15,321 nt of DNA. Origin: Vulcanimicrobiaceae bacterium (GTDB lineage Bacteria > Vulcanimicrobiota > Vulcanimicrobiia > Vulcanimicrobiales > Vulcanimicrobiaceae). Below, in pieces: positions 519 through 15,117 of the stretch. The DNA lies in contig JBHEMM010000016.1 of assembly GCA_046262595.1 (NCBI GenBank), forward strand, positions 1-15,321, written 5' to 3'. Every line of letters starts with the position of its first letter. The first letter of the stretch is position 1. Under the pieces are notes generated by a model. It ran no database searches. It was not told the origin of the DNA and was given only the letters and a program-made list of their open reading frames with translations. A program made the position numbers and the translations under genes.

Positions 519-540
519 AGCGCGACCGGCGGAGAACAAG

Positions 541-568
541 CGGGCGGTCCCTTGCGAGAGGCCGCCCG
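541..568 (+). other. GC-rich stem-loop after hppA (no U-tract)
   Basis: CGGGCGGTC...GGCCGCCCG inverted repeat 22 nt after the stop codon. Confidence 0.4.
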
Positions 569-609
569 ATGCGTTTCCGTTACGCCGCTAGAGGTAAAAC
601 AGCATTTAT

Positions 610-1530
610 ATGAACCGCATCGTTGCCGCCGCGCTTGCGGCCGTTCTGGCGCTCACTGCAGCGGCGCCCGCACTTGCCTACTCCGACGAGGAGCAGCAAG
701 AGCTGCAGATTGGCCAGCAAGTCTATCAGCAGCTGCAGCAAAAGGGCGAAATCGTGCGAAGCTCGCCGGATTATACGACCCTGAACTCGATCGCCGCGCG
801 CATTAAGCCGGTCGCCGATCGCAACTATTTCGTGCCTTTTCACTTCATTCTGGTGAACGAGAAGTCTCCGAACGCATTCTCGGTTCCCGGCGGCAACGTC
901 TACGTAACGACCTCGATGATGCGTTTCGTGCACAACAAGGAAGAACTCGCCGGCGTGTTGTGCCACGAGGTCAACCACGACATCCATCACGACGTCTACA
1001 ATCTGTACGCCAAAGAGCAGCGTCTCTCACTCTACGCAGGCCTTGCCTCCATCCTGTTCGGACGCAATAGCGACATCGTCAATACGGGAATCAATCTCGC
1101 CGCGAACCTGCAGGCGCTGCACTTCTCGCGCGACGTCGAACACAGCGCCGACCACGGCGGCGCATACACGTGCGCGCAAGCCGGCATCACCCCGTACGCA
1201 ATGATTTGGCTCATGCAGCAGTTCGAAGCGAACCCCAGCGGCACGCCGCCGGAATTCCTCTCCGATCATCCCAGCGACAGCCACCGCATCGGCGCGCTGC
1301 AGTCGGAGTTTTCTTCCGACCCTTCCACGTTCTCGCGTTTCAATCAGAATATCGCCTGTTCGACGCCAATCGGCGTAGCCGGATGGAACGATCAATACCA
1401 AGGCGGCTGCGGACGCCGTCAGCAAACCGGAGCCGCGCCACGGTCCCGTTCGCGGTCCGGCGCACGCCCGATCGCGCCGGTGGCAGCTTCGAGCAAACCG
1501 AGATGCCCGAGTGGCTGGAAGTTCTGCTAG
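610..1530 (+). CDS. Secreted M48-family zinc metallopeptidase (BepA/YfgC-like catalytic domain)
   Basis: Signal peptide ending ALA-YS; PNAFSVPGGNVYV; EELAGVLCHEVNH (HExxH); FSRDVEHSAD; FLSDHPSDSHRI. Confidence 0.9.
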   Translation: MNRIVAAALAAVLALTAAAPALAYSDEEQQELQIGQQVYQQLQQKGEIVRSSPDYTTLNSIAARIKPVADRNYFVPFHFILVNEKSPNAFSVPGGNVYVTTSMMRFVHNKEELAGVLCHEVNHDIHHDVYNLYAKEQRLSLYAGLASILFGRNSDIVNTGINLAANLQALHFSRDVEHSADHGGAYTCAQAGITPYAMIWLMQQFEANPSGTPPEFLSDHPSDSHRIGALQSEFSSDPSTFSRFNQNIACSTPIGVAGWNDQYQGGCGRRQQTGAAPRSRSRSGARPIAPVAASSKPRCPSGWKFC

Positions 1531-1540
1531 GCGACGCGCA

Positions 1541-2059
1541 TTAAGCGGCGGCTACGGCCGTCAACGCGGTGTAGCGCTGATAGATGATGACATACGAAAC
1601 GATTAGCGCGCTCACCGCAAACGCCAGAACGCCGTCGCCCGCGAGCGAAGCCGCCGGGCCCGAATGCGGCGCGAGATACCGCACCAGCGCGCGCAAGCCG
1701 AACGCGACCAGCCACACGAGTACGATGAGCGGCGAGCTCCGGACGTCGATCACACCACGTTTCTCCGTCGCGCGCACCTCGCTGTGCCGGCCGCGTACCC
1801 AGCCGAGGGGAATCCCCGCGAGCGCGCCGGCGAGCAGTGCCGCGCCCACTTCCCACGCGGGCGCGGGAACGGCGCCGAGCCGCGAGGCAGCTGCGGCGCC
1901 CCCCCAAACGCTCAGAGCCGTCAGCGCAACCAGGAAGATCGGCATAATAGCTAACCGAACAACGCTCATGCGCTGCGGCCGCGCCATGCGGTAGATGAAA
2001 AGGCCGATCACGGCGGCGTAGATCAGAACCGTCACATTGAACGGCGGCGCTGAATGCAT
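1541..2059 (-). CDS. CcdC/DUF1453-like integral membrane protein
   Basis: About 5 hydrophobic segments; IYRMARPQRMSVVRLAIMP and GIPLGWVRG..VLVWLVAFGLR resemble DUF1453 proteins. Confidence 0.7.
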   Translation of the reverse strand: MHSAPPFNVTVLIYAAVIGLFIYRMARPQRMSVVRLAIMPIFLVALTALSVWGGAAAASRLGAVPAPAWEVGAALLAGALAGIPLGWVRGRHSEVRATEKRGVIDVRSSPLIVLVWLVAFGLRALVRYLAPHSGPAASLAGDGVLAFAVSALIVSYVIIYQRYTALTAVAAA

Positions 2060-2074
2060 TTTGCGTATCCTTAC

Positions 2075-2500
2075 TTACTTGACCATGACATCTTTTAGCG
2101 GCTCAGTACCGGTTAATTCGATGACTGCCGGCGCTTTCGTCATCGCGTAATGCGCGAGCCCCGGGGCCAGCGATATGAACGAACCGGCCGGGAACGCCGT
2201 CAGTTTTTTGGCATCGTATTTCTTGCCGACACCGGCGTAAAACACGCCCGAAATGACGGTCACGTTTTCACGGCCCGGGTGGTAGTGGGCCGGGAAAACC
2301 CAGTTTGTCCCGGTCTTCAAGCGGACGGCATAAAAGCCGGGCTTGCTGGGATTCCCGTACAACACCGCCATTGAGAAGCCGCCCTGCTGTTTGACCCAAT
2401 GCTCTTGACCCGGCATGACGAAGACGGGGCCGGCCGCTGCCGTGACCGCCGCCGCCCTTAAAGCAACCAGCACCGCAAACGCCAAAAAGTAGGAACGCAT
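2075..2500 (-). CDS. Secreted cupin-domain protein
   Basis: Signal peptide; cupin motifs PAHYHPGRENVTVISG and AGSFISLAPGLAHYA; GGAGG RBS at 2505-2509. Confidence 0.85.
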   Translation of the reverse strand: MRSYFLAFAVLVALRAAAVTAAAGPVFVMPGQEHWVKQQGGFSMAVLYGNPSKPGFYAVRLKTGTNWVFPAHYHPGRENVTVISGVFYAGVGKKYDAKKLTAFPAGSFISLAPGLAHYAMTKAPAVIELTGTEPLKDVMVK

Positions 2501-2515
2501 AAGACCTCCATCGGT

Positions 2516-2549
2516 AAAGAAAAAGGAGCGTACGCGCGTACACTCCTTT
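2516..2549 (-). terminator. Intrinsic terminator after rplL
   Basis: Minus strand AAAGGAGTGTAC-GCGC-GTACGCTCCTTT followed by TTCTTT. Confidence 0.8.
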
Positions 2550-2568
2550 CTCCGGGCCCGGATTCCTG

Positions 2569-2937
2569 TTACTTGACTTCGACGCTCGCGCCGGCGTCTT
2601 CCAGCTTCTTTTTGACGGCCGCGGCTTCGTCTTTGCTTACGCCTTCTTTGACCGCTTTGGGCGCGCTTTCCACGAACGTCTTCGCCTCGGTCAGTCCCAG
2701 GCTCGTGATTTCGCGAACCGCTTTGATCACTTTGATTTTTTCCGCTCCTGCGGCGGTGAGCACGACGTCGAACTCTGTTTTTTCGGCAGCGGGCGCGGCG
2801 GCGGCCGCGGGGGCGGCCATCATCATGGCCGGTGCTGCGGCGCTGACGCCGTATTTTTCTTCGAGCTGCTTGACGAGATCCGCGAGCTCCAGAACGGTGA
2901 GTTTATCGATCGTTTCAATGATTTCGGCTAGTGCCAT
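2569..2937 (-). CDS. rplL: 50S ribosomal protein L7/L12
   Basis: [52 protein letters not shown]. Confidence 0.99.
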
Positions 2938-2952
2938 GATGCATGTTCTCCT

Positions 2953-3483
2953 TTAAGCGGATGCCGCGGCTTCTTTTTGCTCGCGGATCGAATTGAGCAC
3001 GCGGACGAGTCCGCTTTGGTTGCCCGAAAGCACGGTAACCAGACCGCGCAGCGGGCTTGCAATCGAACCGGCCAGTCTGGCCATCAGTTCTATGCGTGAG
3101 GGAAGCGCTGCAAGCACTTTGACCTGCGCTCCGTCGACGATGCGGCCTTCGATATACGCGGCCTTCACTTCGATGGGTTTGACGTCGTCGGAGAATTTCT
3201 TCAAGGCTTTGGCCGGTGCTACCGGATCTTTGCCGGCGAACACGATGGCCGTTGGGCCGCGCAGGAATTGCTCGAGTTGCGCGCCGAGCTCTTTGCCCGC
3301 GGCAATCGAGAAGAGCGAATTCTTGGCCACTGCGTAGGTGCTGCCGTCCTTGCGGAGCTCGACGCGCAAGCGCGTAATGTCCTGGACGGTCAGACCCGCG
3401 TAATTGGTGAAAAACAAATTGCCCGATTGTTCGAGGCGCTCTTTGAGCTCACCGATCGCGGCTTCTTTTTTTGCGGTTGGCAT
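2953..3483 (-). CDS. rplJ: 50S ribosomal protein L10
   Basis: YAGLTVQDITRLRVELR, VAKNSL, GPTAIVF, LAALPSRIEL; lies directly upstream of rplL. Confidence 0.98.
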   Translation of the reverse strand: MPTAKKEAAIGELKERLEQSGNLFFTNYAGLTVQDITRLRVELRKDGSTYAVAKNSLFSIAAGKELGAQLEQFLRGPTAIVFAGKDPVAPAKALKKFSDDVKPIEVKAAYIEGRIVDGAQVKVLAALPSRIELMARLAGSIASPLRGLVTVLSGNQSGLVRVLNSIREQKEAAASA

Positions 3484-3489
3484 AACATA

Positions 3490-3643
3490 CTTTCAAAAAA
3501 GAAAAGCGTTCGACTCCACAGGGGAGGAACGCCAACCGGATCCGCTGCGATGCCGCAGCCTGACAGTCGTGAACGTCCTGGGCGATACTGCGGCCTTGCG
3601 GCCGGAAATTAAGGGCGCGAGCCCTATCGCTGTCTGTGGAGCC
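3490..3643 (-). promoter_or_regulatory. L10 leader (rplJL autoregulatory RNA) with attenuator-like terminator at 3495-3533
   Basis: Minus strand CCACAGACAGCGATAGGG..CCCTTAAT..TATCGCCCAGG resembles the L10-leader pattern. Stem GCGTTC..GAACGC is followed by TTTTCTTTTTT just before the rplJ start. Confidence 0.75.
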
Positions 3644-3649
3644 TGGGCG

Positions 3650-3678
3650 AGTATAGCAGACCCAGCTGCGCCACGCAA
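3650..3678 (-). promoter_or_regulatory. Sigma70-type promoter for rplJL
   Basis: Minus strand TTGCGT-17 nt-TATACT with an extended -10 TG (TGcTATACT). Confidence 0.7.
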
Positions 3679-3759
3679 CGGGTGAGCGCCATAGGTGCAA
3701 ACCGCCCCTGCTTCTTGAGCTTGCCGCTCCCTGCGCCATTCCGTTCCTGGAGGCGTTTT

Positions 3760-4461
3760 TTACGCGTGCGTTTTAACGTGGGCCGGGTCGACTTTGACCC
3801 CGGGACCCATCGTGCTGGTCAGCGTGATGCTGCGCAGGTAGGTGCCTTTGGATGCCGCCGGTTTCGCGCGCACGATCGCATCGAGCAGAGCCTGCACGTT
3901 TTCATTCAGCTGCTGTTCGCCGAAGCTCGCCTTGCCGACGATCGTGTGGATGATGCCCGTCTTATCCAAGCGGTACTCGACTTTACCGGCCTTGATGTCG
4001 CGGATCGCCGCGCCGATGTTCGCCGAAACGGTGCCGGCTTTCGGGTTGGGCATTTTTTGCGCGAGGACGCGGCCAAGCTCTTTGCCGACGGAGGCCATCA
4101 TATCCGGCGTCGCGACCGCGATGTCAAAATCCGCAAAACCGGCCTTCACCTTGTCGATCAGGTCCTGCTCACCGACGAAATCGGCACCCGCAGCCTCGGC
4201 TTCTTTGCCTTTGTCACCGCGCGCAAACGCGATAACGCGCACCGTGCGGCCGGTGCCGTGCGGCAGAAGGACGGTGCCCCGCACGTTCTGGTCGCTCTTT
4301 TTCGGGTCGACGCCCAAACGGATATGCGCTTCGACCGTTTCGTCGAACTTCGCGTTTGCATTCTTCTTGACCATCGAGACCGCTTCGCCGGCCTCGAACA
4401 GCTGCTTACCGTCGAACGTTTTGGCCGCACTGATGAAACGCTTGCCGTGAACACGCGCCAT
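3760..4461 (-). CDS. rplA: 50S ribosomal protein L1
   Basis: [52 protein letters not shown]. Confidence 0.99.
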
Positions 4462-4886
4462 TATGCTTCCACCTCGACGCCCATCGAACGCGCGGTGCCG
4501 GCGATGATGTTCTTGGCAGCGGCCATATCGTTCGCGTTAATGTCGGGCATCTTCACTTTGGCGATCTCTTCGATCTGCGCGTTCGTGAGTTTGCCGACCT
4601 TGTTGCGGTTGGGCTCTTTGGAACCGGACTCGATCTTGAGCGCTTGTTTGATTAAGAATGAAGCCGGCGGCGTCTTCGTGATGAACGTGAACGTGCGGTC
4701 TTCATAGACGGTGATTTCCACCGGAATAATCATGCCCGCTTGCGAGGCAGTGCGTTCGTTGTACTGCTTGCAAAAGTCCATGATGTTCAAGCTGTACGGT
4801 CCCAAAGCCGGGCCGATCGGCGGCGCGGGCGTTGCTTTGCCGGCCGGAATCTGCAGGCCGATTTTGCCTGTGACTTTCTTTGCCAT
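4461..4886 (-). CDS. rplK: 50S ribosomal protein L11
   Basis: [43 protein letters not shown]; stop overlaps the rplA start (TAATG). Confidence 0.99.
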
Positions 4887-4957
4887 GTTTTCCCTTCGTT
4901 CGTGAGAACTGCCCCTCGATAAACCGCGCGCCCGGGGTCGCCGCGCGCGGAAGCTTG

Positions 4958-5656
4958 CTAGACCTTTTCGATCTGGTAGAACTCGAGCTCGACCGGCGTT
5001 TCGCGCCCGAAAATCGATATCAGCGCGCGCACTTTTTCTTTCTCGGGCTGAATCTCATCCACGATGCCCGTGAAGTCGAAGAACGGCCCGGAGGTGACCT
5101 TGACGCGATCGCCTTTTTTGAAGTCGATCTTGAGCTTGGGCGTTTCGATCCCCATCTGCTTAAGAATCGTCTTCACTTCTTTGTCTTGCAGCGGAACGGG
5201 CTTCTCGCCGGCGCCCGGGCTGCCCACGAAACCGGTCACGCCCGACGTATTGCGCACGACGTACCAGGACTGGTCGTCCATGTCCATCTCAACGAGCACG
5301 TAGCCGGGAAACACTTTTTTCGGTGTGATCTTGCGCTTGCCGTCTTTGAACTCGACTTCGTCTTCCATGGGGACGAGCACGCGGAAGATCTTGTCCTGCA
5401 TGTTCATCGAATGGATGCGGCGCTCGAGATTGGCCTTGACTTTGTTCTCGTAGCCGGAATACGTGTGAATCACATACCAGTGCTTGCGATCGTCTTTGCC
5501 GGCGCGGACCGGTGCCGCATCGGGAAGCGCGGCCTCGGCCTCGGCGGCTCCAGCCAAATCGTTGCTGTGCGCGGCCTCGGTCAGGGCCTGCGCCTCCGAC
5601 TCGTGGGCCGGCACTTCGGCAAGCACGTCGTGCTCGTGGAGTTCGTTTTCGGTCAT
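4958..5656 (-). CDS. nusG: Transcription termination/antitermination factor NusG (232 aa, with acidic N-terminal extension)
   Basis: [43 protein letters not shown] motif [24 protein letters not shown] at 5656 overlaps the secE stop (ATGA), so the track's 5812 start is too long. Confidence 0.98.
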
Positions 5657-5892
5657 TTCGCTATCGGATGCACGGCGCTGAAAACCCACGCGAAGAGCTG
5701 ATCGCACGCAAAGGTGAAAAGTCCGATGACCACCACCAGCACAATGGTAAGGATTGTCGCGGAAACCCACTCGTCGCGCGTCGGCCACGTGACGCGTTTC
5801 AGCTCGAGCCACACGCTCCGGACGAAATCCGAAGGGTTCTGGCCTGCTAATCGTTTGCGGGCGTCCGGCGAACCGCCGGGGGCCTTTGTCAT
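5653..5892 (-). CDS. secE: Preprotein translocase subunit SecE
   Basis: FVRSVWLELKRVTWPTRDE plus one transmembrane helix; AGGAG RBS at 5903-5907; start is ATG 5892 or GTG 5895. Confidence 0.95.
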   Translation of the reverse strand: MTKAPGGSPDARKRLAGQNPSDFVRSVWLELKRVTWPTRDEWVSATILTIVLVVVIGLFTFACDQLFAWVFSAVHPIAK

Positions 5893-5913
5893 CACGTGGT
5901 TACTCCTGAATAT

Positions 5914-5989
5914 TGGCAGGGCGGACAGGACTCGAACCTGCAACAACTCGTTTTGGAGACGAGGACTCTACCAATTGAGCTACCGCCCT
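5914..5989 (-). tRNA. tRNA-Trp(CCA)
   Basis: AGGGCGGTAGCTCAATTGGTAGAG..CTCGT-CTCCAAA-ACGAG..GGTTCGAGTCC..CCGCCCTGCCA; usual position before secE. Confidence 0.97.
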
Positions 5990-5997
5990 ACGGACGC

Positions 5998-6162
5998 TTA
6001 TTTGGTCTCGCGGTGCGGTTTATGGCAACGGCAGAACCGGCAATATTTACTCAGCTCCATGCGCTCCGAGGTCTTCTGCTTATTTTTTTGCGTGTTGTAG
6101 TTGCGGCGCTTGCACTCCGTGCACGCCATCACAACCATCACGCGATTTTCTTTCTTAGCCAC
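5998..6162 (-). CDS. rpmG: 50S ribosomal protein L33, zinc-ribbon (C+) type; absent from the ORF track
   Basis: Manual translation from [64 protein letters not shown] upstream. Confidence 0.97.
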
Positions 6163-6230
6163 GTTCCTCTACCGCTCGACTACCGCTCAACGTAAATATA
6201 ACGGACCCGAGGCCCGTTATGAGACGCCCT

Positions 6231-6260
6231 ACTATAGCACAGGGCGCCAAAACGTTTCAA
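6231..6260 (-). promoter_or_regulatory. Sigma70-type promoter for the rpmG-secE-nusG-rplKA operon
   Basis: Minus strand TTGAAA-18 nt-TATAGT with an extended -10 TG (TGcTATAGT). Confidence 0.7.
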
Positions 6261-6341
6261 GCATCGAAACCGCCGCCCGCCGGAACCGCCTCATGACCGC
6301 AGAGCCTAGCAGGCGCCCGGCCGGCGCCGGGCCGTTGAACT

Positions 6342-6415
6342 TGCGCCCGGCCAGAATCGAACTGGCAACCCCCGCCTTAGGAGTGCGGTGCTCTATCCAA
6401 TTGAGCTACGGGCGC
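6342..6415 (-). tRNA. tRNA-Arg(CCT), CCA end not encoded
   Basis: GCGCCCGTAGCTCAATTGGATAGAGCA-CCGCA-CTCCTAA-GGCGG..GCCAGTTCGATTCTGGC-CGGGCGCA; has the A20 Arg identity base. Confidence 0.92.
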
Positions 6416-6477
6416 ATTCGCGGAGTTTTCGCTTAGGCAGGAGTAGCGGCCTCGCGAGACGGTGAAGTGACCCGGTG

Positions 6478-7398
6478 ATGCATATGTCCGATCGGGGTTC
6501 AACGGATTACGAGCTGCTCGAAAAGCAGCTCGTGGGACTGCTTGAGGACGAGCGCAGCTTTCTTGCCAACGCGTCGAACTTCGCCGCCTTCGTGTTCACC
6601 TCACTGCCGGCAATCAACTGGGCCGGCTTTTATTTTCCTCATCCCGATGCGCTCGTGCTCGGACCGTTCGGCGGCCGCCCGGCGCGTTCGCGCCTGCCGC
6701 GCGGCCGCGGCGTGTGCGGCAAAGCATTCGCGGCCGGCCGCACGATCGTCGTCGACGACGTCACGCAATTCGACGATCACATCGCATGCGATTCCGCCTC
6801 GCGTTCCGAGATCGTCATACCGCTTCTCAAGGACGGCGCGATCTACGGCGTGTTCGATCTCGACGCGCCGATCGAGTCGCGCTTTTCCGCTGGGGATCGC
6901 GCGGCGCTCGAGCGGTTCGTACGGCGCTTTTTGGAATTCACGCCGGTGCCCGAGCAGTACCGTACGCCGCTCGAGGGCGGCGCGCACATCGGCGAGCGTA
7001 TCGATATTCAAACCTGCCGCGATCATCACACGGTGCTGCAATATCTTCTCGAGGACCTCGAGGCGGCGACCGATCCGCAAAAGCTCGCCGAGCTGCTGTC
7101 CCGCTTCAAAAACGTGCTGCTGGCACATCTTCGCCTGGAAGACGATTGGCTCTACCCGCGCCTGCTCAAAAGCGAAAACGAGATCGTCCGACAGAAAGCG
7201 CACACGTATCGCGAGGCGATGGGCGGCCTCCGTCAAACGTTTTTGACGCTATGGACGGCATGGTCGCCGGCCGGTGCGATCGCGGCGGATCCCCGCGCGT
7301 TCCGTTCCGATTGGACGGCATTCGCCCAGCGGCTGGGCGAACGAATGCACGCGGAAGATACGGATCTTTACCTCGCGGCAAACACGGATCTCAACTGA
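6478..7398 (+). CDS. fRMsr/MsrC-like GAF domain fused to a C-terminal hemerythrin/HHE-like domain
   Basis: N half: LANASNFAA, NWAGFY, LVLGPF, GRGVCG, FDDHIACDSASRSEIVIPL, GVFDLDAP. C half: DHH..LLAHLRLEDDWLYPRL..RMHAEDTDLY. Start could be 6475, 6478 or 6484. Confidence 0.85.
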   Translation: MHMSDRGSTDYELLEKQLVGLLEDERSFLANASNFAAFVFTSLPAINWAGFYFPHPDALVLGPFGGRPARSRLPRGRGVCGKAFAAGRTIVVDDVTQFDDHIACDSASRSEIVIPLLKDGAIYGVFDLDAPIESRFSAGDRAALERFVRRFLEFTPVPEQYRTPLEGGAHIGERIDIQTCRDHHTVLQYLLEDLEAATDPQKLAELLSRFKNVLLAHLRLEDDWLYPRLLKSENEIVRQKAHTYREAMGGLRQTFLTLWTAWSPAGAIAADPRAFRSDWTAFAQRLGERMHAEDTDLYLAANTDLN

Positions 7399-7426
7399 CC
7401 GCTGCGACGAACCGCGCTTGTTGGAA

Positions 7427-7501
7427 TGGAGCCGTTGACGGGGATTGAACCCGTGGCCTCGTCCTTACCAAGGACGTGCTCTACCACTGAGCTACAACGG
7501 C
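7427..7501 (-). tRNA. tRNA-Thr(GGT)
   Basis: GCCGTTGTAGCTCAGTGGTAGAGCA-CGTCC-TTGGTAA-GGACG..GGGTTCAATCCC..CAACGGCTCCA. Confidence 0.97.
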
Positions 7502-7511
7502 GTTCCACTGC

Positions 7512-7585
7512 TGGAGCGGGCGGCGGGAATCGAACCCGCGCTGTCTGCTTGGAAGGCAGAAGCACTACCACTATGCAACGCCCGC
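7512..7585 (-). tRNA. tRNA-Gly(TCC)
   Basis: GCGGGCGTTGCATAGTGGTAGTGCT-TCTGC-CTTCCAA-GCAGA..GGGTTCGATTCCC..CGCCCGCTCCA. Confidence 0.97.
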
Positions 7586-7592
7586 GAACCTC

Positions 7593-7680
7593 TGGTGGGC
7601 AGGGCTGGATTCGAACCAGCGTACAGCGTTAGCTGGACAGATTTACAGTCTGTTGCCTTTAACCACTCGGCCACCTACCC
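7593..7680 (-). tRNA. tRNA-Tyr(GTA)
   Basis: GGGTAGGTGGCCGAGTGGTTAAAGGCA-ACAGA-CTGTAAA-TCTGT, long variable arm, GCTGGTTCGAATCCAGC-CCTGCCCACCA. Confidence 0.97.
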
Positions 7681-7859
7681 AAAGGAAAGCCGCCGCGAAC
7701 GGCGGCTGAGCAGGGTACGATGCGCTCGCGCCCGAGTCCTACCCCGGGCGTTTTAATCGAATTCTGAGCGCGCTTTCAGACGACGCTCATGAATCCGCCG
7801 CTTGCCAAGACTATAACGTGATCAAGCATCTTCTTTCTCACGCTATAGGGAGCTTCGCA

Positions 7860-9044
7860 ATGAGCATTTTACGGAAGTATCTGGCTTTGGCGGCCGTCGT
7901 TTCTTCGCTGGGACTGACCGCTTGCGGCGGCGCAGCGCCGGGCAGCACGCTGCCCGTCAACGGCAACAGCACCACGCAGCCGGCCGCCCAGCAAACGGAA
8001 GACGCGATCGACACGGCAAACGCCGTCGGCGCGCCCCTTACCGATATCAGCACTTACAACGACGCGATTGCCGGGCCGGCGTCGTCCGGATTCGTCAAGG
8101 GCGCAGGCCCCGCTGCAAATGCGGCCGGCTCCGGCGCCTGCACGAACGGCGTCGAGTTCTTCGTTCCGGACAAGAACGCGGACGCAAACTCGACCGAACG
8201 CATCGCGTTCTACGACGACGCGTGTACGCAGATCGCACGCGACGCCGTCCGCATCGTGTCCGCCGGCGCGCCCGGATCGGAAATCGTGCAGAGAACCGTT
8301 CATTTGTACGCGATGAACGAGCCGTCCACGCCGGAAGCGGTTCGCGCGGAGTCGGTTGTCTACTCCAACGCGCAGTTCGACCAGTACGGATATCCGGTTC
8401 TCTCGTCGGGTTTCGACCGCGTGCATACGGGAAGCTTGACCCTCGGCGGAGTTCGCACGATCGACGCTGACGGCGAGCTTTCGGTAAGCGCGAGCAGCAG
8501 CAACGTGTCGAACTTCTGCAGCGATTCCGCTGGCTTTAACGCGACCGGGAATCTGAGCGCGAACGAAACGTTCGGCTGGCAGAGCTCGAATCCGGGCGGC
8601 ACGCGTACGGTCAACGGCGACGGCAGCGTGACGTGGTCGCTGACACGCACCGGCACAGCGTTCACGGCTGCTATCGGCGCACTTTCCATTCAAACGGGCG
8701 CGCAGAACACGGCATGCCCCGTTTCGACGCCGATGTTCACGCTTGCGGGCGGTTCGGCGAAAGGCACCTACACCATCCCGATCGACGCGACGTACAAACA
8801 CGGTATTCTCACGAACCTGACCATCGCAAATGCGGCACTCGTGAACGGCGATACGCTGAACGTCTCCACGAACGGCGGCGTCGCACCGAGCGATCCGCAC
8901 TTCATCAGCGGTACGCTCAGCAGCGGCGCCGGCACGATCGCAACGTTCAACGTCGACGCGTTCGGTGACGGATCGCTCGTCGTGAAGGCGAGCGGAAAAG
9001 TGTACGCGATGATCGACTGGCACGTGGTGAAGGCGGCGTCGTAA
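7860..9044 (+). CDS. Hypothetical lipoprotein, rich in Thr/Gly/Asn/Ser, probably beta-strand rich
   Basis: ATG 7860 follows AGGGAG; signal peptide MSILRKYLALAAVVSSLGLTA-C with lipobox LTAC; no family recognised. Confidence 0.8.
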   Translation: MSILRKYLALAAVVSSLGLTACGGAAPGSTLPVNGNSTTQPAAQQTEDAIDTANAVGAPLTDISTYNDAIAGPASSGFVKGAGPAANAAGSGACTNGVEFFVPDKNADANSTERIAFYDDACTQIARDAVRIVSAGAPGSEIVQRTVHLYAMNEPSTPEAVRAESVVYSNAQFDQYGYPVLSSGFDRVHTGSLTLGGVRTIDADGELSVSASSSNVSNFCSDSAGFNATGNLSANETFGWQSSNPGGTRTVNGDGSVTWSLTRTGTAFTAAIGALSIQTGAQNTACPVSTPMFTLAGGSAKGTYTIPIDATYKHGILTNLTIANAALVNGDTLNVSTNGGVAPSDPHFISGTLSSGAGTIATFNVDAFGDGSLVVKASGKVYAMIDWHVVKAAS

Positions 9045-9086
9045 CGAGCCGGACCACACCCGGGGCGAAAAAGAAAGTGCGGCGGC

Positions 9087-9527
9087 CTACGTTGCCGTCG
9101 AGCTTTCTTTTTTTTCCTGGCCTTCTTCCAGATCGATCAGATCGGTCCACGTACGGGCCGAGTCGTTTCCCGGATCGATGCGTTCGAGTTCGTCGCAGAA
9201 CTGACGGTGTTCTTGTTCCCCTTGCGGCTCGTTGTTCTCAACCCACGCGTTCATGCGTTCGATCTTCTCGCGCTCCGGCCGCACGAGCTCGTGAATCCAC
9301 TCCAAGATGCCCGCGTCATCGCGCGCAGTGCGGACCGCGTCTAAGAACTCGTCTTCCGTAACGCCGAGTGTGTTGAAGAGCTTGAGGTTGAAGCGGCAGC
9401 CGTAGTACACGTAAGAGCCAAGCGTTCCGCCGAGCTGGGCGCGCGCCTTATCGACGGCGCGCGCTAAAATCGAGATTCCGTCGAGTTGCTCGCGGGGGCT
9501 GCGAGGATACTCTTTTGTGAGGTTCAT
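9087..9527 (-). CDS. DUF5069-like protein
   Basis: MNLTKEYPRSPREQLDGISILARAVDKARAQLGGTLGSYVY..C.F...LF..LGV...EF..AV..WTDLIDLEEG matches my recollection of DUF5069. Start is 9527 or 9536. Confidence 0.75.
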   Translation of the reverse strand: MNLTKEYPRSPREQLDGISILARAVDKARAQLGGTLGSYVYYGCRFNLKLFNTLGVTEDEFLDAVRTARDDAGILEWIHELVRPEREKIERMNAWVENNEPQGEQEHRQFCDELERIDPGNDSARTWTDLIDLEEGQEKKESSTAT

Positions 9528-9655
9528 GCCCGCCATGTTCCCGCTTTTGCGCGCCACGCGCGCCCGATAGGACGAAGGGGTAGCAACAAGGGGCGAACGC
9601 GCCTTGGGGAGCGTACGTTAGACCGTCGTACGGCACAGCGGGGTGTCGTATGGTG

Positions 9656-9684
9656 TTCTTGCCGGTCAGCGACCGGCAAGGAGG
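9656..9684 (+). promoter_or_regulatory. Hairpin overlapping the RBS (AAGGAGG 9678-9684) of the precursor ORF
   Basis: Perfect inverted repeat CTTGCCGGTC-AGC-GACCGGCAAG (9658-9680), extendable by 2 bp. Confidence 0.7.
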
Positions 9685-9688
9685 ACCT

Positions 9689-9826
9689 ATGTACGAAGCA
9701 CCTCACGTCATTGCAACGTTCGACGCCGGCGAACTCCTAGGCGAAGCTTATGGGGGCAACCCCGGTTGCGGCAATGAAGGCAATGGCTTACCTGTCGGCA
9801 ACGGCAGCTGTCACAGCGTCGTGTGA
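9689..9826 (+). CDS. Putative RiPP precursor peptide, 45 aa (absent from the ORF track)
   Basis: AAGGAGG-acct-ATG; MYEAPHVIATFDAGELLGEAYGGNPGCGNEGNGLPVGNGSCHSVV*; YxxP leader motif; first gene of a cluster that encodes a PqqD/RRE protein. Confidence 0.85.
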   Translation: MYEAPHVIATFDAGELLGEAYGGNPGCGNEGNGLPVGNGSCHSVV

Positions 9827-10721
9827 CGCACCTGGGGCGCATCAGAAAGGTGCGTCCCACAGTGCGGCCTCTGGCTACTTTACCCTAGGCCGCATCGGCT
9901 TAGCGTTTCAAACGCGGGACGCCTTGAGCCAAGCACTCGCTTGCCGCGCCTTCGCGCCGCTAAGCTGCCGCACGACGCTGCCGGCCGAACTGCATCATGC
10001 GGAAATTTTTCCGACCGCCGCAGGGCTGACCGGTCGTTTTAACGGCGTCGAGCGCCGGTACGCGATGGCCGGCGATCCGTTCGGCGCGGCATTCGACGCC
10101 GTGCGCGACGTCTTTGCGCAATTCGCCGCAACGGCGTCTGGTGACGGCGCGTATCACGGCGCGACCGTTGCAATCGCCGGCGCAGGAACCGTACTTCTCG
10201 GCGACGCAACCGCCGGAAAAACGCTGCTCGCACTCCATCTCACCGCGATGGGCGGCTGCTTTTACGGCGATGAAACGTTTTTGTTCGACGGCGAGAACCG
10301 CGTCGTGCGGGCGATGCCGCGCCTGCCCGCGCTGCGCGAACCAGCCCTAGCGCTTTTACCCGACCAAGCGATGCGTCGAGCCGTCGAGGGGGCGTTGAAC
10401 GTCGCTGCGCGCCCGGGAGGACGCTTGTACTACGCGCTCGAGCCGCACGAGCTCTGCGGCATTGCGCCCGACCCCTCGCCCCTGCCGCTGAAAAACGTTA
10501 TTCTGCTGCACGGCCGTGCACGCCATACGCGGTTGGAGCGTCTAACGGTAAACGGCTTGCTCGCCGCGTTCGTGCGCCGCTCGTACGTTAAGCCGGCGGA
10601 TCTGCGCGCGCTTGGACGGATACGCGCCGCATTGCATGGCGTGCGCGGATACCGTTTGATTGCCGGAGCGCCCGCGCAGACAGCACAACTGATCGTAAAG
10701 GAGCTTACGCGATGCACGTAA
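9750..10721 (+). CDS. HPr kinase-related P-loop protein 1 (start codon uncertain)
   Basis: YHGATVAIAGAGTVLLGDATAGKTLLALHLTAMGGCFYGDE shows the His...Walker A...DE pattern of HprK-like kinases; later PLPLKNVILL. Confidence 0.8.
   Translation: MGATPVAAMKAMAYLSATAAVTASCDAPGAHQKGASHSAASGYFTLGRIGLAFQTRDALSQALACRAFAPLSCRTTLPAELHHAEIFPTAAGLTGRFNGVERRYAMAGDPFGAAFDAVRDVFAQFAATASGDGAYHGATVAIAGAGTVLLGDATAGKTLLALHLTAMGGCFYGDETFLFDGENRVVRAMPRLPALREPALALLPDQAMRRAVEGALNVAARPGGRLYYALEPHELCGIAPDPSPLPLKNVILLHGRARHTRLERLTVNGLLAAFVRRSYVKPADLRALGRIRAALHGVRGYRLIAGAPAQTAQLIVKELTRCT
9825..9858 (+). other. Stem-loop directly after the precursor ORF
   Basis: GGGGCGCATC-AGAAA-GGTGCGTCCC, or alternatively GACGCACCT (9825-9833) pairing with AGGTGCGTC (9848-9856); no U-tract. 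Confidence 0.65.
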
Positions 10722-11608
10722 TCTCCGCGCGCGAACTGCAACGCGGAGGCGACATGGCGCATCTGCGGCAAGGCGCGCCGCAATCGGTTGCGCTTCGCAT
10801 CGCGCAGATTGGCGTCCGCATTGAAACCGCCGTTCCGGGCCTTGCTGCGGAACTTGCATTGCGTTATGCCGGTCATTTGGACGAGCGGGCGCCGGACTTC
10901 GTTTACCGCATCTTCCCCTCACCGCAAGGTTACGCGTTCTGGTGCGATCACGACGGCGCGTGGCAATGGAAAGCCGGTTCTCTGCCGCTGGATGCGATCG
11001 CATTTCTCGCCGATGCCGCTATGCTCTCGGCGCTCGTGCACTTCGATCCGCTTCTCGCTTCGGTGCATGCAGCCGCCGTCGCCGCGCACGGCTGCGCTGC
11101 GGCCATCGCCGGAGACTCGACTGCCGGAAAAACAACGACGCTGCTGGCGTGCGCGCGCGCCGGACTGCAAGTCTATTCGGACGAACGGGCGTTGGTGCGC
11201 CAAGGGATCGTCCATTCATTTTTGCGCCGCTGCTCGGTGCGTCCGGACGGGCGCAGCCGCTTGCTGGCCGACGACGACGCCGACGCACTGGCCCACGCGA
11301 TGCATGCCCGCGGCGATATTGCGCTTGCAGCGGTGTTCGGTGAAGCCGCTGTCGCACCGCCGCTTGCGCTGCGTGCACTGTTCGTGCTCGACGGCTATGC
11401 GGCGCGGCCGTTCATCGAACCGATCGACGCAACCGCGGCGCTGCCGGCCGTTTCGCGGTGGTTCGACACTTGCGGCGGCGCGATCGAACGCACCGCGCGT
11501 GCGCTGGGCCTGCTGCGTTCCCTGCACTGTTTCCGTTTGACGCTGGGTACGCCGCGCGAGAGCGCTCTTGCCGTGCGTGAAACATTAGAGCAGCTCGCAT
11601 GGCGTTAA
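10712..11608 (+). CDS. HPr kinase-related P-loop protein 2
   Basis: VHAAAVAAHGCAAAIAGDSTAGKTTTLLACARAGLQVYSDERALV; PLALRALFVL; AAGGAG RBS at 10698-10703; overlaps the previous stop. Confidence 0.85.
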   Translation: MHVISARELQRGGDMAHLRQGAPQSVALRIAQIGVRIETAVPGLAAELALRYAGHLDERAPDFVYRIFPSPQGYAFWCDHDGAWQWKAGSLPLDAIAFLADAAMLSALVHFDPLLASVHAAAVAAHGCAAAIAGDSTAGKTTTLLACARAGLQVYSDERALVRQGIVHSFLRRCSVRPDGRSRLLADDDADALAHAMHARGDIALAAVFGEAAVAPPLALRALFVLDGYAARPFIEPIDATAALPAVSRWFDTCGGAIERTARALGLLRSLHCFRLTLGTPRESALAVRETLEQLAWR

Positions 11609-13113
11609 CCGGCAACGCAAGCGCAACGACGAGAGCCGCATTGGTCCGGATGGCCGCAAATGCTGCCGCTCACGCGCGCGTCGTGATGCGCGGCGGCAGC
11701 ATGGCTCCCGACCTGCGCGAAGGAATGACGTTAGAGATCGCTCCGCCGCCCGAACGCATTCGTCGCGGCGCCATCCTTGTATTCTGCGCCGGCGCGCGTC
11801 TGGTCGCGCATCGCGTCGTTCGGGTTGAAGGTGCGGTCGCTGTCTGCTCGGGCGACGCGCAGCCCGAATGTATTGAGCGGGTGCAGCGCGGCGAAATCGT
11901 CGGCGTGGTTCGCGCAGTGTTCACGCCGGGCGGCGCCCGCGTCGACAATCTGGCGTTTCGCATGCGCGGCAATGCGCGCTCGCTTTCTCACCGCGTCCGT
12001 GTGTTTGCATCGCGAGCGCTTCCCCACCGGCGCACGCGTGCGTATGCGATGCTCGTGCGCGCGATGTCCTGCGCGGTCCGCAGCGACGATGCGGGGCTGC
12101 AGGCCGCCGTTGAAGCGGCGGCGCCGTGGCGGCTTGAAACCATTGCGCGGCGCCACCGTTGCGCTGCAGCGCTGTGCGCCGCGCTGCGGCGCACCGGCGG
12201 CGAGCACGCGGCTGAGCTCGCGCGCCGTCTAAGCGCCGATGCGTGGGCCGCAGCCGGACGTGCCCGGCGGTTGCGTTCCCAATTAGAAAGCGTTCTCGCC
12301 GTGCTGCGCGATGCCGGGATCCCATGCGCCGTCCTCAAAGGCGCCGCGCGGCTGCTGCAAGGAGACGAGTGGAGCGAACGCACCGAATCGCAAGACCTCG
12401 ATCTGCTGGTGGCCCCGCATGACGTCGAACGCGCCGCTTCGGCGTTGCGCGCTTGCGGTTACGCCCACCGCTGTTCGCAGGCGGAACTGCAGTATTATTC
12501 GGCGGCGCATCACCATGCCGAACCGCTTTACCCGCCGGGCGAAGGCGTGCCGGTCGAGCTGCATCGCTCGCTCGAGCTGGCCGAACTCTCGCTTCCGAAG
12601 ACGTGGAACGATTTGTTTGCGCTCTTTACGCCGCTGCGCGAGGGCGTGTATGCGTTGGGACCGGCGGGCAACGCGCTGCACCTCGCCATTCACGCGATGC
12701 GCCGCCCCGCGCTTCGCGAGATCGTTTTGCTCGCACGGCAGTTGCAGCGTCTGGATGCGTATGACACTGCTCGTCTGCGCGGCATTCTCGCACGCGAGCA
12801 CCGCTTTGCCATACGTCTGCACGGTGCCATCGCGTTCGCGGCGCAGCTTGCCGGAGTACCCTGGAACGTGTCCGCGCGCGCGGAGCACTATTCGCGATGG
12901 ATGCAAGCCCGCGAAGATTTGCCGCTGCCGATGCGAGCACGCACGCACTGCCTGGACGAATATTTCGGCGCGCAGGAAGGCGCCGTACAGGCTGCCTTTG
13001 CAGCAGCCTTCGAAGGCGCAACGCGCGCGCGGGGCCGGCAGACCGTCCGCGCTATCGCACGCCTGGGCGCGGCATGCGCGAGCGCGATTTACCTGCGTCT
13101 CACGCCTGGATAA
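11599..13113 (+). CDS. Fusion of an S24/S26 (signal-peptidase-like) peptidase domain and a nucleotidyltransferase (NTP_transf_5-like) domain
   Basis: N-terminal: MRGGSMAPDLREG..GAILVF..LVAHRVV..SGDA..V..GEIVGVV. C-terminal: AGIPCAVLKGAA..RTESQDLDLLV..A..AL..CGY..HH..PVELH..HLAIHA. Confidence 0.85.
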   Translation: MALTGNASATTRAALVRMAANAAAHARVVMRGGSMAPDLREGMTLEIAPPPERIRRGAILVFCAGARLVAHRVVRVEGAVAVCSGDAQPECIERVQRGEIVGVVRAVFTPGGARVDNLAFRMRGNARSLSHRVRVFASRALPHRRTRAYAMLVRAMSCAVRSDDAGLQAAVEAAAPWRLETIARRHRCAAALCAALRRTGGEHAAELARRLSADAWAAAGRARRLRSQLESVLAVLRDAGIPCAVLKGAARLLQGDEWSERTESQDLDLLVAPHDVERAASALRACGYAHRCSQAELQYYSAAHHHAEPLYPPGEGVPVELHRSLELAELSLPKTWNDLFALFTPLREGVYALGPAGNALHLAIHAMRRPALREIVLLARQLQRLDAYDTARLRGILAREHRFAIRLHGAIAFAAQLAGVPWNVSARAEHYSRWMQAREDLPLPMRARTHCLDEYFGAQEGAVQAAFAAAFEGATRARGRQTVRAIARLGAACASAIYLRLTPG

Positions 13114-13357
13114 GTCCCAACAACTCGAACTGCTGCAGAACCGCCGTCACATCTTCGAGCGCGCACGGCGCGGCACCGTCTCCCTCGAGTCTTTTTGCGA
13201 TCGCAGCCGCGTCCGTACGCCCGTCGCATGCCTGTAGAACCACGCCTGCTGTACGGTTGAGCACATGGATCTTTCGGACACGCGTATCGTGAACGAGCAC
13301 GTCGTCGCCCGTGTCTTGAATTTCCAACGCTTCGCTGCGTTCAGGTGACGCTTTCAT
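13100..13357 (-). CDS. Stand-alone PqqD-family RiPP recognition element (RRE)
   Basis: 85 aa; DDVLVHD..KIHVLNRTAGVVLQACDG.TDAAAIAKRL..DVTAVLQQFELLGLI; AAAGGA RBS. Confidence 0.88.
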   Translation of the reverse strand: MKASPERSEALEIQDTGDDVLVHDTRVRKIHVLNRTAGVVLQACDGRTDAAAIAKRLEGDGAAPCALEDVTAVLQQFELLGLIQA

Positions 13358-13372: not shown

Positions 13373-14170
13373 TTAATAAGCGGAGAGTGAGCCGTCGCGC
13401 TTTGCGTGCGTGATAGCAGCGTGCAGCGCGTAGATGCCGGCGGGCAGTAAAATGAGCGTCGCGGCGGCAAGCCACAGCGCATCGCCCTGAACGGGAGAAA
13501 CGCCGCCGCCCGCCATGGCGGTGCGCGCGCCGCGCAGCGTATGTGTGAGCGGCAGCAGCCAAGAAACGTATTGCAGCGGTTCGGGCAGCAGCGCGACGGG
13601 GAAGAGCACCCCGGTCAAAAGGGTTGCGGCACTGCCGACGAAAAACGTGGAAGGCGCACCTTGCTTGAACGCAATCACGGCAGCGGCGCCGAGCGCACCC
13701 ATGGACGCTGCGCACGCCCCGCCGAGCGCGAGAAACAGCGCGAGCAGCGGCGCATCAACTTGCGCGATCCGTAAGCCGAAAATCATCGCTACGCCGATAT
13801 ACGCCGCGCCTTGCAGCAGCGCAAAGCAGATGGGCCATGCGGCCGAAGCGAAGACGATCGCGAGTACGGGGGCGGGGGAGCCAAGCATCGGCTCGAGTGT
13901 TCCGGCAACTTGGTCCCGGCGCAACGCCGCAGGAACGCACTGCAGCGCGACGTTGAGCACCAGCATGAAAGCCAGATTCACGACGACATAGCTGAAATAG
14001 TCGATGTGGCGGCCACCGGCGTCGAGTGCGGCGTGCGGATTCACGATGCGCGCGAGGAAAGCGAAACCCGCAACGGTAAGCGCTACGCTTGCGAAAGGCG
14101 TAATCAGCGTCGAAGGATACGAGAGCGCTAGTCGCACGTCGCGTTCCACGAACGCACGCAGCAGTGTCAC
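13373..14170 (-). CDS. ABC-2 type exporter permease
   Basis: About 6 transmembrane segments; RRDQVAGTLEPMLGSP, LLTGVLFPVALLPEPLQYVSWLLPLTHTLRGAR, AKRDGSLSAY. Confidence 0.93.
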   Translation of the reverse strand: MTLLRAFVERDVRLALSYPSTLITPFASVALTVAGFAFLARIVNPHAALDAGGRHIDYFSYVVVNLAFMLVLNVALQCVPAALRRDQVAGTLEPMLGSPAPVLAIVFASAAWPICFALLQGAAYIGVAMIFGLRIAQVDAPLLALFLALGGACAASMGALGAAAVIAFKQGAPSTFFVGSAATLLTGVLFPVALLPEPLQYVSWLLPLTHTLRGARTAMAGGGVSPVQGDALWLAAATLILLPAGIYALHAAITHAKRDGSLSAY

Positions 14171-15117
14171 CGGCTCGCCTCATGCACGAAGAGATCTTCG
14201 GCATCGGGTGCACAGGACGTAATCGATTTCACGCGGCTTTCGCCGTGCAGGATCTCTCGCAAAAAGCCGCTCACGCTATCCGGCTGCGCTTGCACGTCGG
14301 CGATCATTTCCGCACCGGCGGAAGACGGCCGCAGTTCGATATCGCCGAACCGCGAGGCACGCAGCGCGAGCGTTGTGTCGATGCGATCGAAGTCGACGCG
14401 ATAGCGCATCGTTTTGACGAAACGGCGGCTCAGCGCCGCAGGCGTGTCTATTCCGATCGTGCGCCCGCCCGAAAGCAGCACGATGCGATCGCAAACGTTC
14501 CACGCCTCTTCGAGTAAATTCGTCGCAAGCACAATGGTCTTGCCGGCACGCTTCGCGAGATCGTCGCGCACGAACGTGCGGAGCATCTGCGCGTGAAGCG
14601 GGTCGACGGCGCGCGTCGGTTCGTCCAGAAGCAAGATTTGCGCTTCATGCAGCAAGGCACGCGCGATGGAGAGCCGCTGACGCGTGCCGGTCGAGCAGCG
14701 GCTGTAACGCCGCCCGCCCACCGCGGTCAGATCGGTGATGGCGAGAACCGCATCGACGCGCGCCTTCAAGGCGCAGCCGTGCAAACCGTAGAGCCGCGCA
14801 AAAAACTCGAGATTCTCGCGCATAGAAAGACGGAAATAAAAGCTCCGGTCCGCGGCACTGCACAGTCCGACGATGCGCTGCGCCGCTCGCGCCGTCAGCG
14901 GCGCACCGTCGAAGAGGATTTCGCCACGGTCGGGTTTGAGCAGTCCGGCGATAGCGTGCAGAATCGTCGTCTTTCCGGCTCCGTTGGCGCCGAGCAGACC
15001 AACGACTTCTCCGCGCTCGACGGTAAAGCCGATATCTTCGAGCACGGGCACGCGCTCGCCCGGGCGCAGCCAATGCCCCTTGCGAAATGCCTTTCCCAGC
15101 CCACGAACGTGCAGCAC
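14167..15117 (-). CDS. ABC exporter ATP-binding protein
   Basis: Walker A GANGAGKTT, signature CSTGTRQRLSIARAL, Walker B LLLDEPT; GTGA overlap with the permease. Confidence 0.95.
   Translation of the reverse strand: MLHVRGLGKAFRKGHWLRPGERVPVLEDIGFTVERGEVVGLLGANGAGKTTILHAIAGLLKPDRGEILFDGAPLTARAAQRIVGLCSAADRSFYFRLSMRENLEFFARLYGLHGCALKARVDAVLAITDLTAVGGRRYSRCSTGTRQRLSIARALLHEAQILLLDEPTRAVDPLHAQMLRTFVRDDLAKRAGKTIVLATNLLEEAWNVCDRIVLLSGGRTIGIDTPAALSRRFVKTMRYRVDFDRIDTTLALRASRFGDIELRPSSAGAEMIADVQAQPDSVSGFLREILHGESRVKSITSCAPDAEDLFVHEASR

Follow-up and report, generated by a model that had tools for sequence, protein, structure and literature searches.

A conserved precursor peptide gene of the Vulcanimicrobiota and its predicted LPP-like maturation cluster

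The unannotated gene of 45 codons described here is real, as judged from its conservation, and with moderate confidence it encodes the precursor of an LPP-like RiPP of the Vulcanimicrobiota, one that would be phosphorylated and not a lasso peptide. The cluster that it heads is a variant of the LPP pathway, which was first described in 2026. The gene translates as MYEAPHVIATFDAGELLGEAYGGNPGCGNEGNGLPVGNGSCHSVV, followed by a stop codon, and is surrounded by the features listed in Table 1. The window, meaning the whole stretch of 15,321 nucleotides that was analysed, is an entire contig.

Table 1. Features of the precursor gene and its cluster (positions in the window; an arrow marks a predicted cut)
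Feature	Position	Strand	Basis
Ribosome-binding site AAGGAGG, ATG 4 nt downstream	9678..9684	+	homologues preceded by similar sites
Precursor peptide gene, 45 aa and stop	9689..9826	+	translation, homologues, codon-position pattern
Leader, residues 1-22: YxxPxV RRE-binding motif (Y2, P5, V7), predicted helix 13-20, A20-Y21-G22 junction	9689..9754	+	counts in 78 precursors; helix from a low-confidence model (pTM 0.29)
Predicted -3 to -1 of the S26 cut, A-Y-G↓	9746..9754	+	small residues at both positions in 71/78 at the A-x-G↓ register
Core, residues 23-45; N24, P25, C27-N32 and V36-C41 invariant in 27 close homologues	9755..9823	+	alignment
V-G-N-G-S40-C41, family-wide G-S motif with predicted phosphorylation site Ser40 (9806-9808) adjoining Cys41	9794..9811	+	G-S counts, 27/27 invariance
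Cys27 to Cys41, predicted disulfide loop of 15 residues	9767..9811	+	both invariant in 27/27
Strong hairpin directly 3' of the precursor stop codon	9827..9866	+	-30.3 kcal/mol, z -3.4, 0/200 shuffles as stable
Kinase 1, HprK-like, accessory clade; start uncertain	9750..10721	+	weak family matches, tree, motif counts
Kinase 2, HprK-like, with H119, K140, D157, E158; predicted primary kinase	10712..11608	+	motifs, HPrK structures
Soluble S26 (archaeal/SipW-type) peptidase (S34, H71, E93) fused to PF14907 nucleotidyltransferase (S264, D266, D268, HHH 304-306)	11599..13113	+	504 aa; Pfam/NCBIfam, alignment, model
Discrete RRE (PqqD family); N34, D69, F77 invariant	13100..13357	-	PF05402 E 1.8e-8
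ABC-2 type permease	13373..14170	-	family matches
ABC ATPase (DrrA-like)	14167..15117	-	family matches

The cluster and its relatives

The precursor gene is followed on the forward strand by the two kinase genes and the fusion gene, towards which the ABC ATPase, ABC-2 permease and RRE genes converge on the reverse strand, and the layout of the closest relative, L034, is identical. Among 39 distinct loci with an S26 domain, a kinase is present in 38, an RRE in 35, the precursor in 34, the S26-nucleotidyltransferase fusion in 29, and an ABC-2 permease in 25. Of the five S26 loci that have no precursor, four stop where their contig does; for three of these four (L154, L158, L159) there is a precursor near the end of another contig. 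At E <= 1e-10, matches to the fusion protein are present in 45 of 301 genomes of the family, a count that takes in the source genome, two unpublished genomes, and nucleotidyltransferase-only matches from another type of cluster. Where strong kinase matches come from named records, most of the titles read Vulcanimicrobiota, Eremiobacterota, or WPS-2, several read 'bacterium' only, and three are proteobacterial. No precursor match was found in the 33 weakest kinase loci (L121-L153), nearly all of which belong to other groups, and no radical SAM enzyme or cyclase was found among the 66 of 128 representative neighbour proteins that were scanned.

The pathway is not confined to polysaccharide loci, in which LPPs are often found; some clusters are within such loci (L040, L043, L045, L051, L061, L158, L159, L168), but that of the window is not. 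The genes at positions 1-7800 of the window are ordinary neighbours, which we take to include those for a ribosomal protein and for NusG-like and SecE-like proteins, with a GAF-hemerythrin fusion at 6475-7398. A DUF5069 gene is present upstream of the precursor (9087-9557), and there are probable tRNA stretches near 5900-6400 and 7370-7700.

Several related arrangements were seen elsewhere. Precursor genes that have none of the pathway genes in the surrounding sequence retrieved are present in L155, L156, L157 (G015), and in L167, L170, and L171; one closed chromosome has three such orphans besides two clustered copies, and those of L157, L167, and L171 adjoin an adenylate-cyclase-like TPR gene. 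A sub-type has no detected S26 domain (L050, L053, L062, L082, L112), its L062 member having a nucleotidyltransferase with a C-terminal HEAT repeat. An unnamed protein of 270-300 aa with a weak HEAT-repeat signal adjoins the precursors in L050, L053, L082, L091, and L112. In or beside single clusters there are possible additional tailoring genes, for a JmjC oxygenase, methyltransferases, and a GNAT acetyltransferase (L115:5751-6959; L072:7689-8408; L044:1573-2433; L108:7024-7614). There is also a second conserved cassette, of a PqqD-like protein, an Asp-Asp HprK-like kinase, two GT2 glycosyltransferases, a lasso B2-like protease, and a PF14907 nucleotidyltransferase (G000:C20:35597-42522; L045, L055, L059, L060, L064-L068, L083, L091), near which neither a cyclase nor a precursor was found.

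Evidence that the precursor gene is real

The ribosome-binding site and the peptide are as the initial annotation had read them, as is its inventory of residues: four GN dipeptides (23, 28, 31, 37), cysteines at 27 and 41, S40 and S43 as the sole hydroxyl residues of residues 23-45, E30 at core position 8, and no Thr at -2. A ribosome-binding site with a [YW]xxP motif is not in itself rare, the motif being present near the start of 11 of 514 short ORFs of the source genome that are led by such a site, and conservation is therefore the main evidence for the gene. Comparison with two relatives gave pairwise nucleotide differences at codon positions 1/2/3 of 7/5/19, 6/5/20, and 11/5/25, with 14-19 synonymous against 9-12 non-synonymous codon changes, while the flanks are only 21-39% identical in the same comparison. 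Absence of the ORF from related clusters had been named in advance as grounds for dropping it; instead, 78 distinct related precursors were found in the genomes of relatives (L086 excluded), mostly adjoining the same enzyme genes and, where records are named, from Vulcanimicrobiota, although related genomes are not independent samples.

That the ORF might be an untranslated by-product of the overlapping kinase 1 frame, which is open through the 3' half of the precursor ORF, can be given virtually no credence. Read in the peptide frame, the changes fall mainly on third positions, the protein sequence of the overlapping frame shows no conservation, and the precursor profile has matches in 38 of 301 genomes of the phylum (one unpublished genome included), with a ribosome-binding site before the related peptides.

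A leader profile search of the source genome returned the precursor ORF with E 4e-11 and no second significant copy, and a protein database search gave 82 relatives among 167 candidates. Only 2 short loci turned up when metagenomes were scanned for the core subfamily. The precursor matches no family in Pfam or NCBIfam, nor do any of 29 homologues match NCBIfam, and an ESM Atlas search with the precursor returned unnamed clusters only, all under 0.9. Hairpins after the precursor are also present in the two relatives, with different sequence, and no sigma-70-like promoter was found in 9000-10200. A structure model of the precursor alone (pTM 0.29) was uninformative for the core.

Leader and cleavage junction

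Counting from the leader Tyr, Pro is present at +3 in 78 of 78 precursors and V, I, or L at +5 in 78 of 78, followed by a hydrophobic-acidic pair and then a short helix, so the description of the peptide as a RiPP precursor with a lasso-type, RRE-binding leader holds across the family. The junction is similarly constant, with A in 63, V in 11, and P in 4 at +18, a mostly bulky residue at +19, and G in 50, A in 17, and T in 6 at +20. Signal peptidases follow a rule of small residues at -3 and -1, type I enzymes disfavouring Val or Pro at -1. Small residues occupy both positions in 71 of 78 precursors at the A-x-G↓ register, in 58 of 78 two residues earlier, and in 6-39 elsewhere, which bears out A-Y-G↓, as had been suggested, as the candidate S26 cut site. 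The Ala at -3 is partly circular, since 29 of these peptides contributed their residues 1-20 to the search profile, which includes neither the -1 position nor the core.

In the A-x-G register Ser is at +3 in 26 of 78 precursors. Five precursors read E-A-E-T↓ at the junction, which agrees with the F-E-T↓A-Q-S of LppA. The four precursors with Pro at -3 are all in L050 and L082, two of the loci with no detected S26 domain; two others of that kind, L053 and L112, retain A-E-G.

Core peptide

Across the family the conserved feature of the core is a single G-S motif, represented here by Ser40, which the initial annotation had overlooked. All 78 cores contain Ser, and 53 of them have G-S, where shuffling gives a mean of 21 and a maximum of 33. 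In short family members a hydrophobic-G-x-G-S motif straddles the junction, and it recurs downstream in 11 longer cores, including this one (one of the 11 has Lys in the first position), while the A-x-G stays by the leader. In this peptide, then, the target Ser40 would be at +18 and not +3, and it may be the local G-x-G-S motif that the kinase reads. The Gly-Asn repeats that had been pointed out in the core are present, with four GN in this peptide, but are typical of one subfamily only, two or more GN dipeptides occurring in 4 of 78 cores.

The close homologues comprise 25 peptides of at least 69% identity and near-full coverage together with this peptide and that of L034; these 27 were chosen by likeness to this peptide, so that conservation among them is inflated. 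Within this set 14 of 23 core residues are invariant as against 3 of 21 leader residues. Cys27, Cys41, Ser40, and E30 are invariant in 27/27, S43 is kept in 25/27, and residue +1 is G, D, S, or A, with an insertion there in two. The invariance of 14 core residues, Cys27, Cys41, and Ser40 among them, makes a disulfide ring likely, in keeping with the C27-C41 bond proposed earlier, and the product is probably closed into a ring by the two cysteines. Family cores have no Cys in 28, one in 19, and two in 31 of 78, never more, with which an optional disulfide would fit. Stronger constraint on the core than on the leader points to a folded product, and conservation to this degree suggests a specific partner or a metal ligand.

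The two kinases

Assignment of the kinases to the HprK-like group follows from weak matches to TIGR04352/TIGR04355, far below the curated cut-offs, from HPrK structures (E 0.0024), and from a His-Lys-Asp-Glu motif. In a quick tree, in which some row labels are mis-anchored, they form two clades (supports 96 and 90); the His and Tyr counts are from a separate motif count. The catalytic His is kept in 54 of 56 single and second-of-pair (kinase 2-type) kinases; the same position in 26 first-of-pair (kinase 1) proteins is Tyr in 22, Phe in 1, and His in 3. The kinase 1 of the window is one of those three, with Walker A and Asp-Glu also kept. Kinase 1 would be an optional accessory, and in most clusters it is probably either non-catalytic or tuned differently. 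Asp-Glu is present in 82 of 82 kinases of the system as against the Asp-Asp of characterised enzymes, and the His-Lys-Asp-Asp motif is reported as essential in lasso kinases in the available part of a review (PMC9266682).

The sole canonical in-frame starts for a full-length kinase 1 are the ATGs at 9750, 9774, and 9783, all inside the precursor gene, and no ATG, GTG, or TTG is present between the precursor stop and the conserved beginning of the kinase. Because of this, the precursor and kinase 1 genes may overlap, or a rare start codon may be used. Frameshifting from the precursor into kinase 1 was considered and rejected: although the frame is open in the window, L034, L036, and L154, its offset is not constant from one family member to another.

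Orphan pairs of both kinases, with no precursor, peptidase, or RRE, are found in the source genome (G000:C32:16663-18443) and in L074 and L090. In the latter two the pair is between ECF sigma factor and SCO1 genes, and the catalytic His of kinase 2 is Gln.

Peptidase-nucleotidyltransferase fusion and RRE

The S26 domain matches TIGR02228 with E 1.6e-5, below the curated cut-off, and S34, H71, and E93 are unchanged wherever the 25 aligned sequences reach them (in 20, 23, and 23 sequences, with gaps in the others). No membrane anchor was found in the fusion. Its nucleotidyltransferase domain matches PF14907 with E 5.7e-25, and the invariant residues are K247-G248, S264, D266, D268, H304-H306, E320, and H322. 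A Foldseek search with the fusion model (pLDDT 93.5) gave no match at E <= 0.001, and a wide fold search placed the nucleotidyltransferase domain beside MenT1 (Z 12.4, rmsd 3.2, 175 aligned) and ANT(2'')-Ia (Z 12.1, rmsd 3.3, 158 aligned), and the peptidase domain beside SipA (Z 9.6, rmsd 2.3, 89 aligned). The modelled domain thus resembles O-nucleotidyltransferases, although fold likeness does not establish function. In the available text of PMC6993621, PsmN is likewise modelled on ANT(2'') and is needed for the hexose on phosphoserine, not for a cross-link. A faint match of the domain to the haloarchaeal ribulose-bisphosphate 5-phosphatase model NF053830 (E 0.035) was also seen. No short stand-alone S26 homologues were returned at E <= 1e-5, LppS included.

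N34, D69, and F77 of the RRE are invariant in 24 of 24 RREs and correspond by eye to N33, D70, and F74 of LppB, although LppB was absent from the matches listed for the RRE. The RRE thus appears to retain the residues that bind YxxP in LppB, in favour of the pairing of this RRE with this leader that the initial annotation had put forward. The modelling of the complex that it proposed gave weak support, with a score of 0.43 against 0.00 for the best control, but the pass may stem from resemblance to RRE-leader complexes already solved. Among solved pairs 116 of 157 come up to the mark, and among mismatched pairs 2 of 215, each of those two scoring < 0.60; here the partner has a pLDDT of at least 53, and agreement between runs extends to at least 96% of contacts. 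Elsewhere the source genome has a further RRE of this family, standing alone (G000:C1:74644-74922) beside what is presumably a ribosomal protein S15-like gene.

Proposed maturation and its alternatives

The proposed order of events is modelled on LPP. The discrete RRE would bind the YxxPxV motif of the leader, a step suggested by the conserved residues and the precedent of LppB, with weak support from the complex model. Kinase 2 would then phosphorylate or polyphosphorylate Ser40 in V-G-N-G-S before cleavage, after which the RRE would present the leader to the fused S26 domain, which would cut after G22 to give a core of 23 residues. The fused nucleotidyltransferase may then cap the phosphoserine with a nucleotide or sugar, as PsmN does; this is the weakest step. 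The ABC-2 transporter would finally export the peptide, Cys27 and Cys41 oxidising to the disulfide outside the cytoplasm.

The same pathway with the cut placed elsewhere is unlikely, though it has some points in its favour. For a cut after A20 (G-E-A↓Y-G-G) there are the small residues at both positions of the G-E-A register in 58 of 78 precursors and Glu at its -2 in 48 of 78, comparable to the E-2 of LppA, but this would set Val (11) or Pro (4) at the -1 position where type I signal peptidases disfavour them. A downstream cut, at P-V-G↓N-G-S, would release a peptide of 8 residues with Ser40 at +3, and V36-G37-N38-G39-S40 does repeat the junction of the short family members. It would, however, place Pro at -3 and lose the invariant C27-N32, the leader-adjacent A-x-G is retained in 11 of 11 peptides with the displaced motif, and LPP cleavage relied on residues of the leader, not the core, in the available text of PMC13381572. 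Also distinctly improbable is a division of S40 and S43 between the two kinases, as the earlier matching of two serines to two kinases would have it. The conservation of S43 in 25 of 27 close homologues, the separate clades of the two kinases, and the His, Walker A, and Asp-Glu of the kinase 1 of the window are in its favour, but the number of kinases is unrelated to the number of serines, the mean core Ser being 2.1 in 19 one-kinase and 2.0 in 24 two-kinase precursors (p = 0.81), and 7 precursors of two-kinase clusters have a single Ser. Furthermore, the His of kinase 1 is replaced by Tyr or Phe in 23 of 26, including the close relatives L034-L036, and in L174 a kinase 2-type gene comes straight after a precursor with this same core (the contig ending soon after). 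The characterised HprK-like RiPP kinases load several phosphates onto one Ser, as far as the available texts describe them (PMC13381572, PMC9266682).

It is conceivable, though very improbable, that the phosphate is an intermediate only, the fused peptidase-nucleotidyltransferase coupling leader removal to activation of phospho-Ser40, so that an invariant Cys thiol or the freed N-terminus attacks to close a thioether or P-N ring with no lanthipeptide or lasso enzyme needed. If true, a cyclic peptide would be made by a kinase, its His-to-Tyr pseudokinase partner, and a nucleotidyltransferase alone, a ring-forming chemistry that to our knowledge is not known in RiPPs, and it would explain why the final LPP product and the function of LppN have eluded detection. 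The peptidase and nucleotidyltransferase are one protein in 29 of 39 loci, 46 of the 50 cores with Cys have one within two residues of a Ser (shuffled mean 32, maximum 43), and S-C is present in 23 of 78 cores (shuffled mean 12, maximum 21); the final structure of LPP and the function of LppN, both open in the available text of PMC13381572, also leave room for it. On the other side, 28 of 78 cores have no Cys, PsmN served hexose attachment and not cross-linking (PMC6993621, available text), and the fold is like that of the O-nucleotidyltransferases ANT(2'')-Ia and MenT1. Less credible still, and extremely improbable, is a lasso peptide with a G23-E30 ring, made by a cyclase whose gene is outside the cluster, an option that the initial annotation had allowed from the geometry of the ring and that is not borne out. 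G at +1 and E at +8 would suit it, E30 being invariant among the close homologues, and the source genome, which is about 90% complete, has a B2-like gene on another contig. This is, however, its sole B2-like gene and is outside the cluster, and that genome has no match to the lasso cyclase model NF033535 over the cut-off, its sole cyclase match being a full AsnB in a polysaccharide locus; tblastn with AsnB gave no match in 108 loci. Thr(-2) is present in 0 of 78 precursors, and a small +1 residue with D or E at 7-9 in only 6 of 78. With no cyclase found and residue +1 variable among the close homologues, lasso formation is unlikely.

Comparison with known systems

LPP is made by lppA-K-B-S-D-N of Paenibacillus alginolyticus (Popov et al., Nat Commun 2026, PMC13381572). 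In the text of that paper that was available, an HprK kinase polyphosphorylates Ser3 of the core, the SpI-like peptidase depends on the RRE and on S29/H68/D93, N33 and D70 of the RRE matter, LppN gave no visible product in a single test, and LPP is described as restricted to Bacillota. The cluster here shares with it the YxxPxV leader, a discrete RRE with the same Asn, Asp, and Phe, a soluble SpI-like peptidase of the archaeal type with E93 about where LppS has D93 (by eye), an HprK-like kinase, an uncharacterised NTP transferase, an exporter, and a core cluster with no cyclase. Ser is at +3 in many family members, and many LppA cores are Gly-Asn rich too.

There are also differences from LPP as it is described in the same text. 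The phylum is different, the RRE and exporter are on the opposite strand, the peptidase is fused to the nucleotidyltransferase, Glu replaces the Asp of the triad, and the kinases are Asp-Glu, with a frequent second kinase in which His is replaced by Tyr. The exporter is an ABC-2 permease with a DrrA-like ATPase, where LPP has an MsbA-like one. The core of this subfamily is near-invariant and contains two Cys, and its target Ser would be at +18. Relative to LppA the leader is five residues longer (Y at -21 as against -16) and the junction is A-x-G instead of F-E-T. Of the LPP leader consensus (YxxPxVLxHQxIxFETxxS / Px9Fx[T/A]), YxxPx[VIL] is present in 78 of 78 precursors, but the position of the Phe of Px9F is A in 24, E in 23, and D in 13. 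Because the leader is longer and has no Px9Fx[T/A], the LPP cut site is not directly transferable, and since the leader consensus and the MsbA-like exporter are lacking and the host is outside the Bacillota, the cluster is a variant of LPP and not a member. No Eremiobacterota or Vulcanimicrobiota name was found in the searched files of the supplements of Popov et al., and no paper on this Vulcanimicrobiota variant was found in a literature search whose coverage excluded most subscription journals.

The phosphorylated lasso peptides of the pseudomycoidin and paeninodin type (PsmK/PsmN, PadeK) are similar, as far as the available texts go (PMC6993621, PMC9266682), in having an HprK-like kinase that acts on a Ser of the precursor, an uncharacterised nucleotidyltransferase (PsmN), and a lasso-type RRE and leader motif. 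Unlike them, the cluster here has no macrolactam cyclase, no B2 protease, and no Thr(-2), and the target Ser would be internal instead of at the C-terminus. The same phylum-level group also yields a linear phosphorylated RiPP, phospeptin of Ca. Eudoremicrobium (Paoli et al. 2022, PMC9259500), but according to the text available it is modified on Thr by a LanM-like maturase, an enzyme family other than the HprK-like kinases.

Significance

These clusters extend LPP-like chemistry beyond the Bacillota to a mostly uncultured soil phylum. They have features that are absent from the available text of the LPP paper, namely a second clade of kinases in which Tyr takes the place of His, a phosphorylation motif displaced downstream, and a core that is more constrained than the leader. 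The end product of LPP and the role of the PF14907 nucleotidyltransferases (LppN, PsmN), open questions in the texts available, are ones on which this cluster bears. Because it is compact and apparently self-contained, with a core of 23 residues, one predicted target serine, and a nucleotidyltransferase-peptidase fusion, it would be a good system in which to test them.
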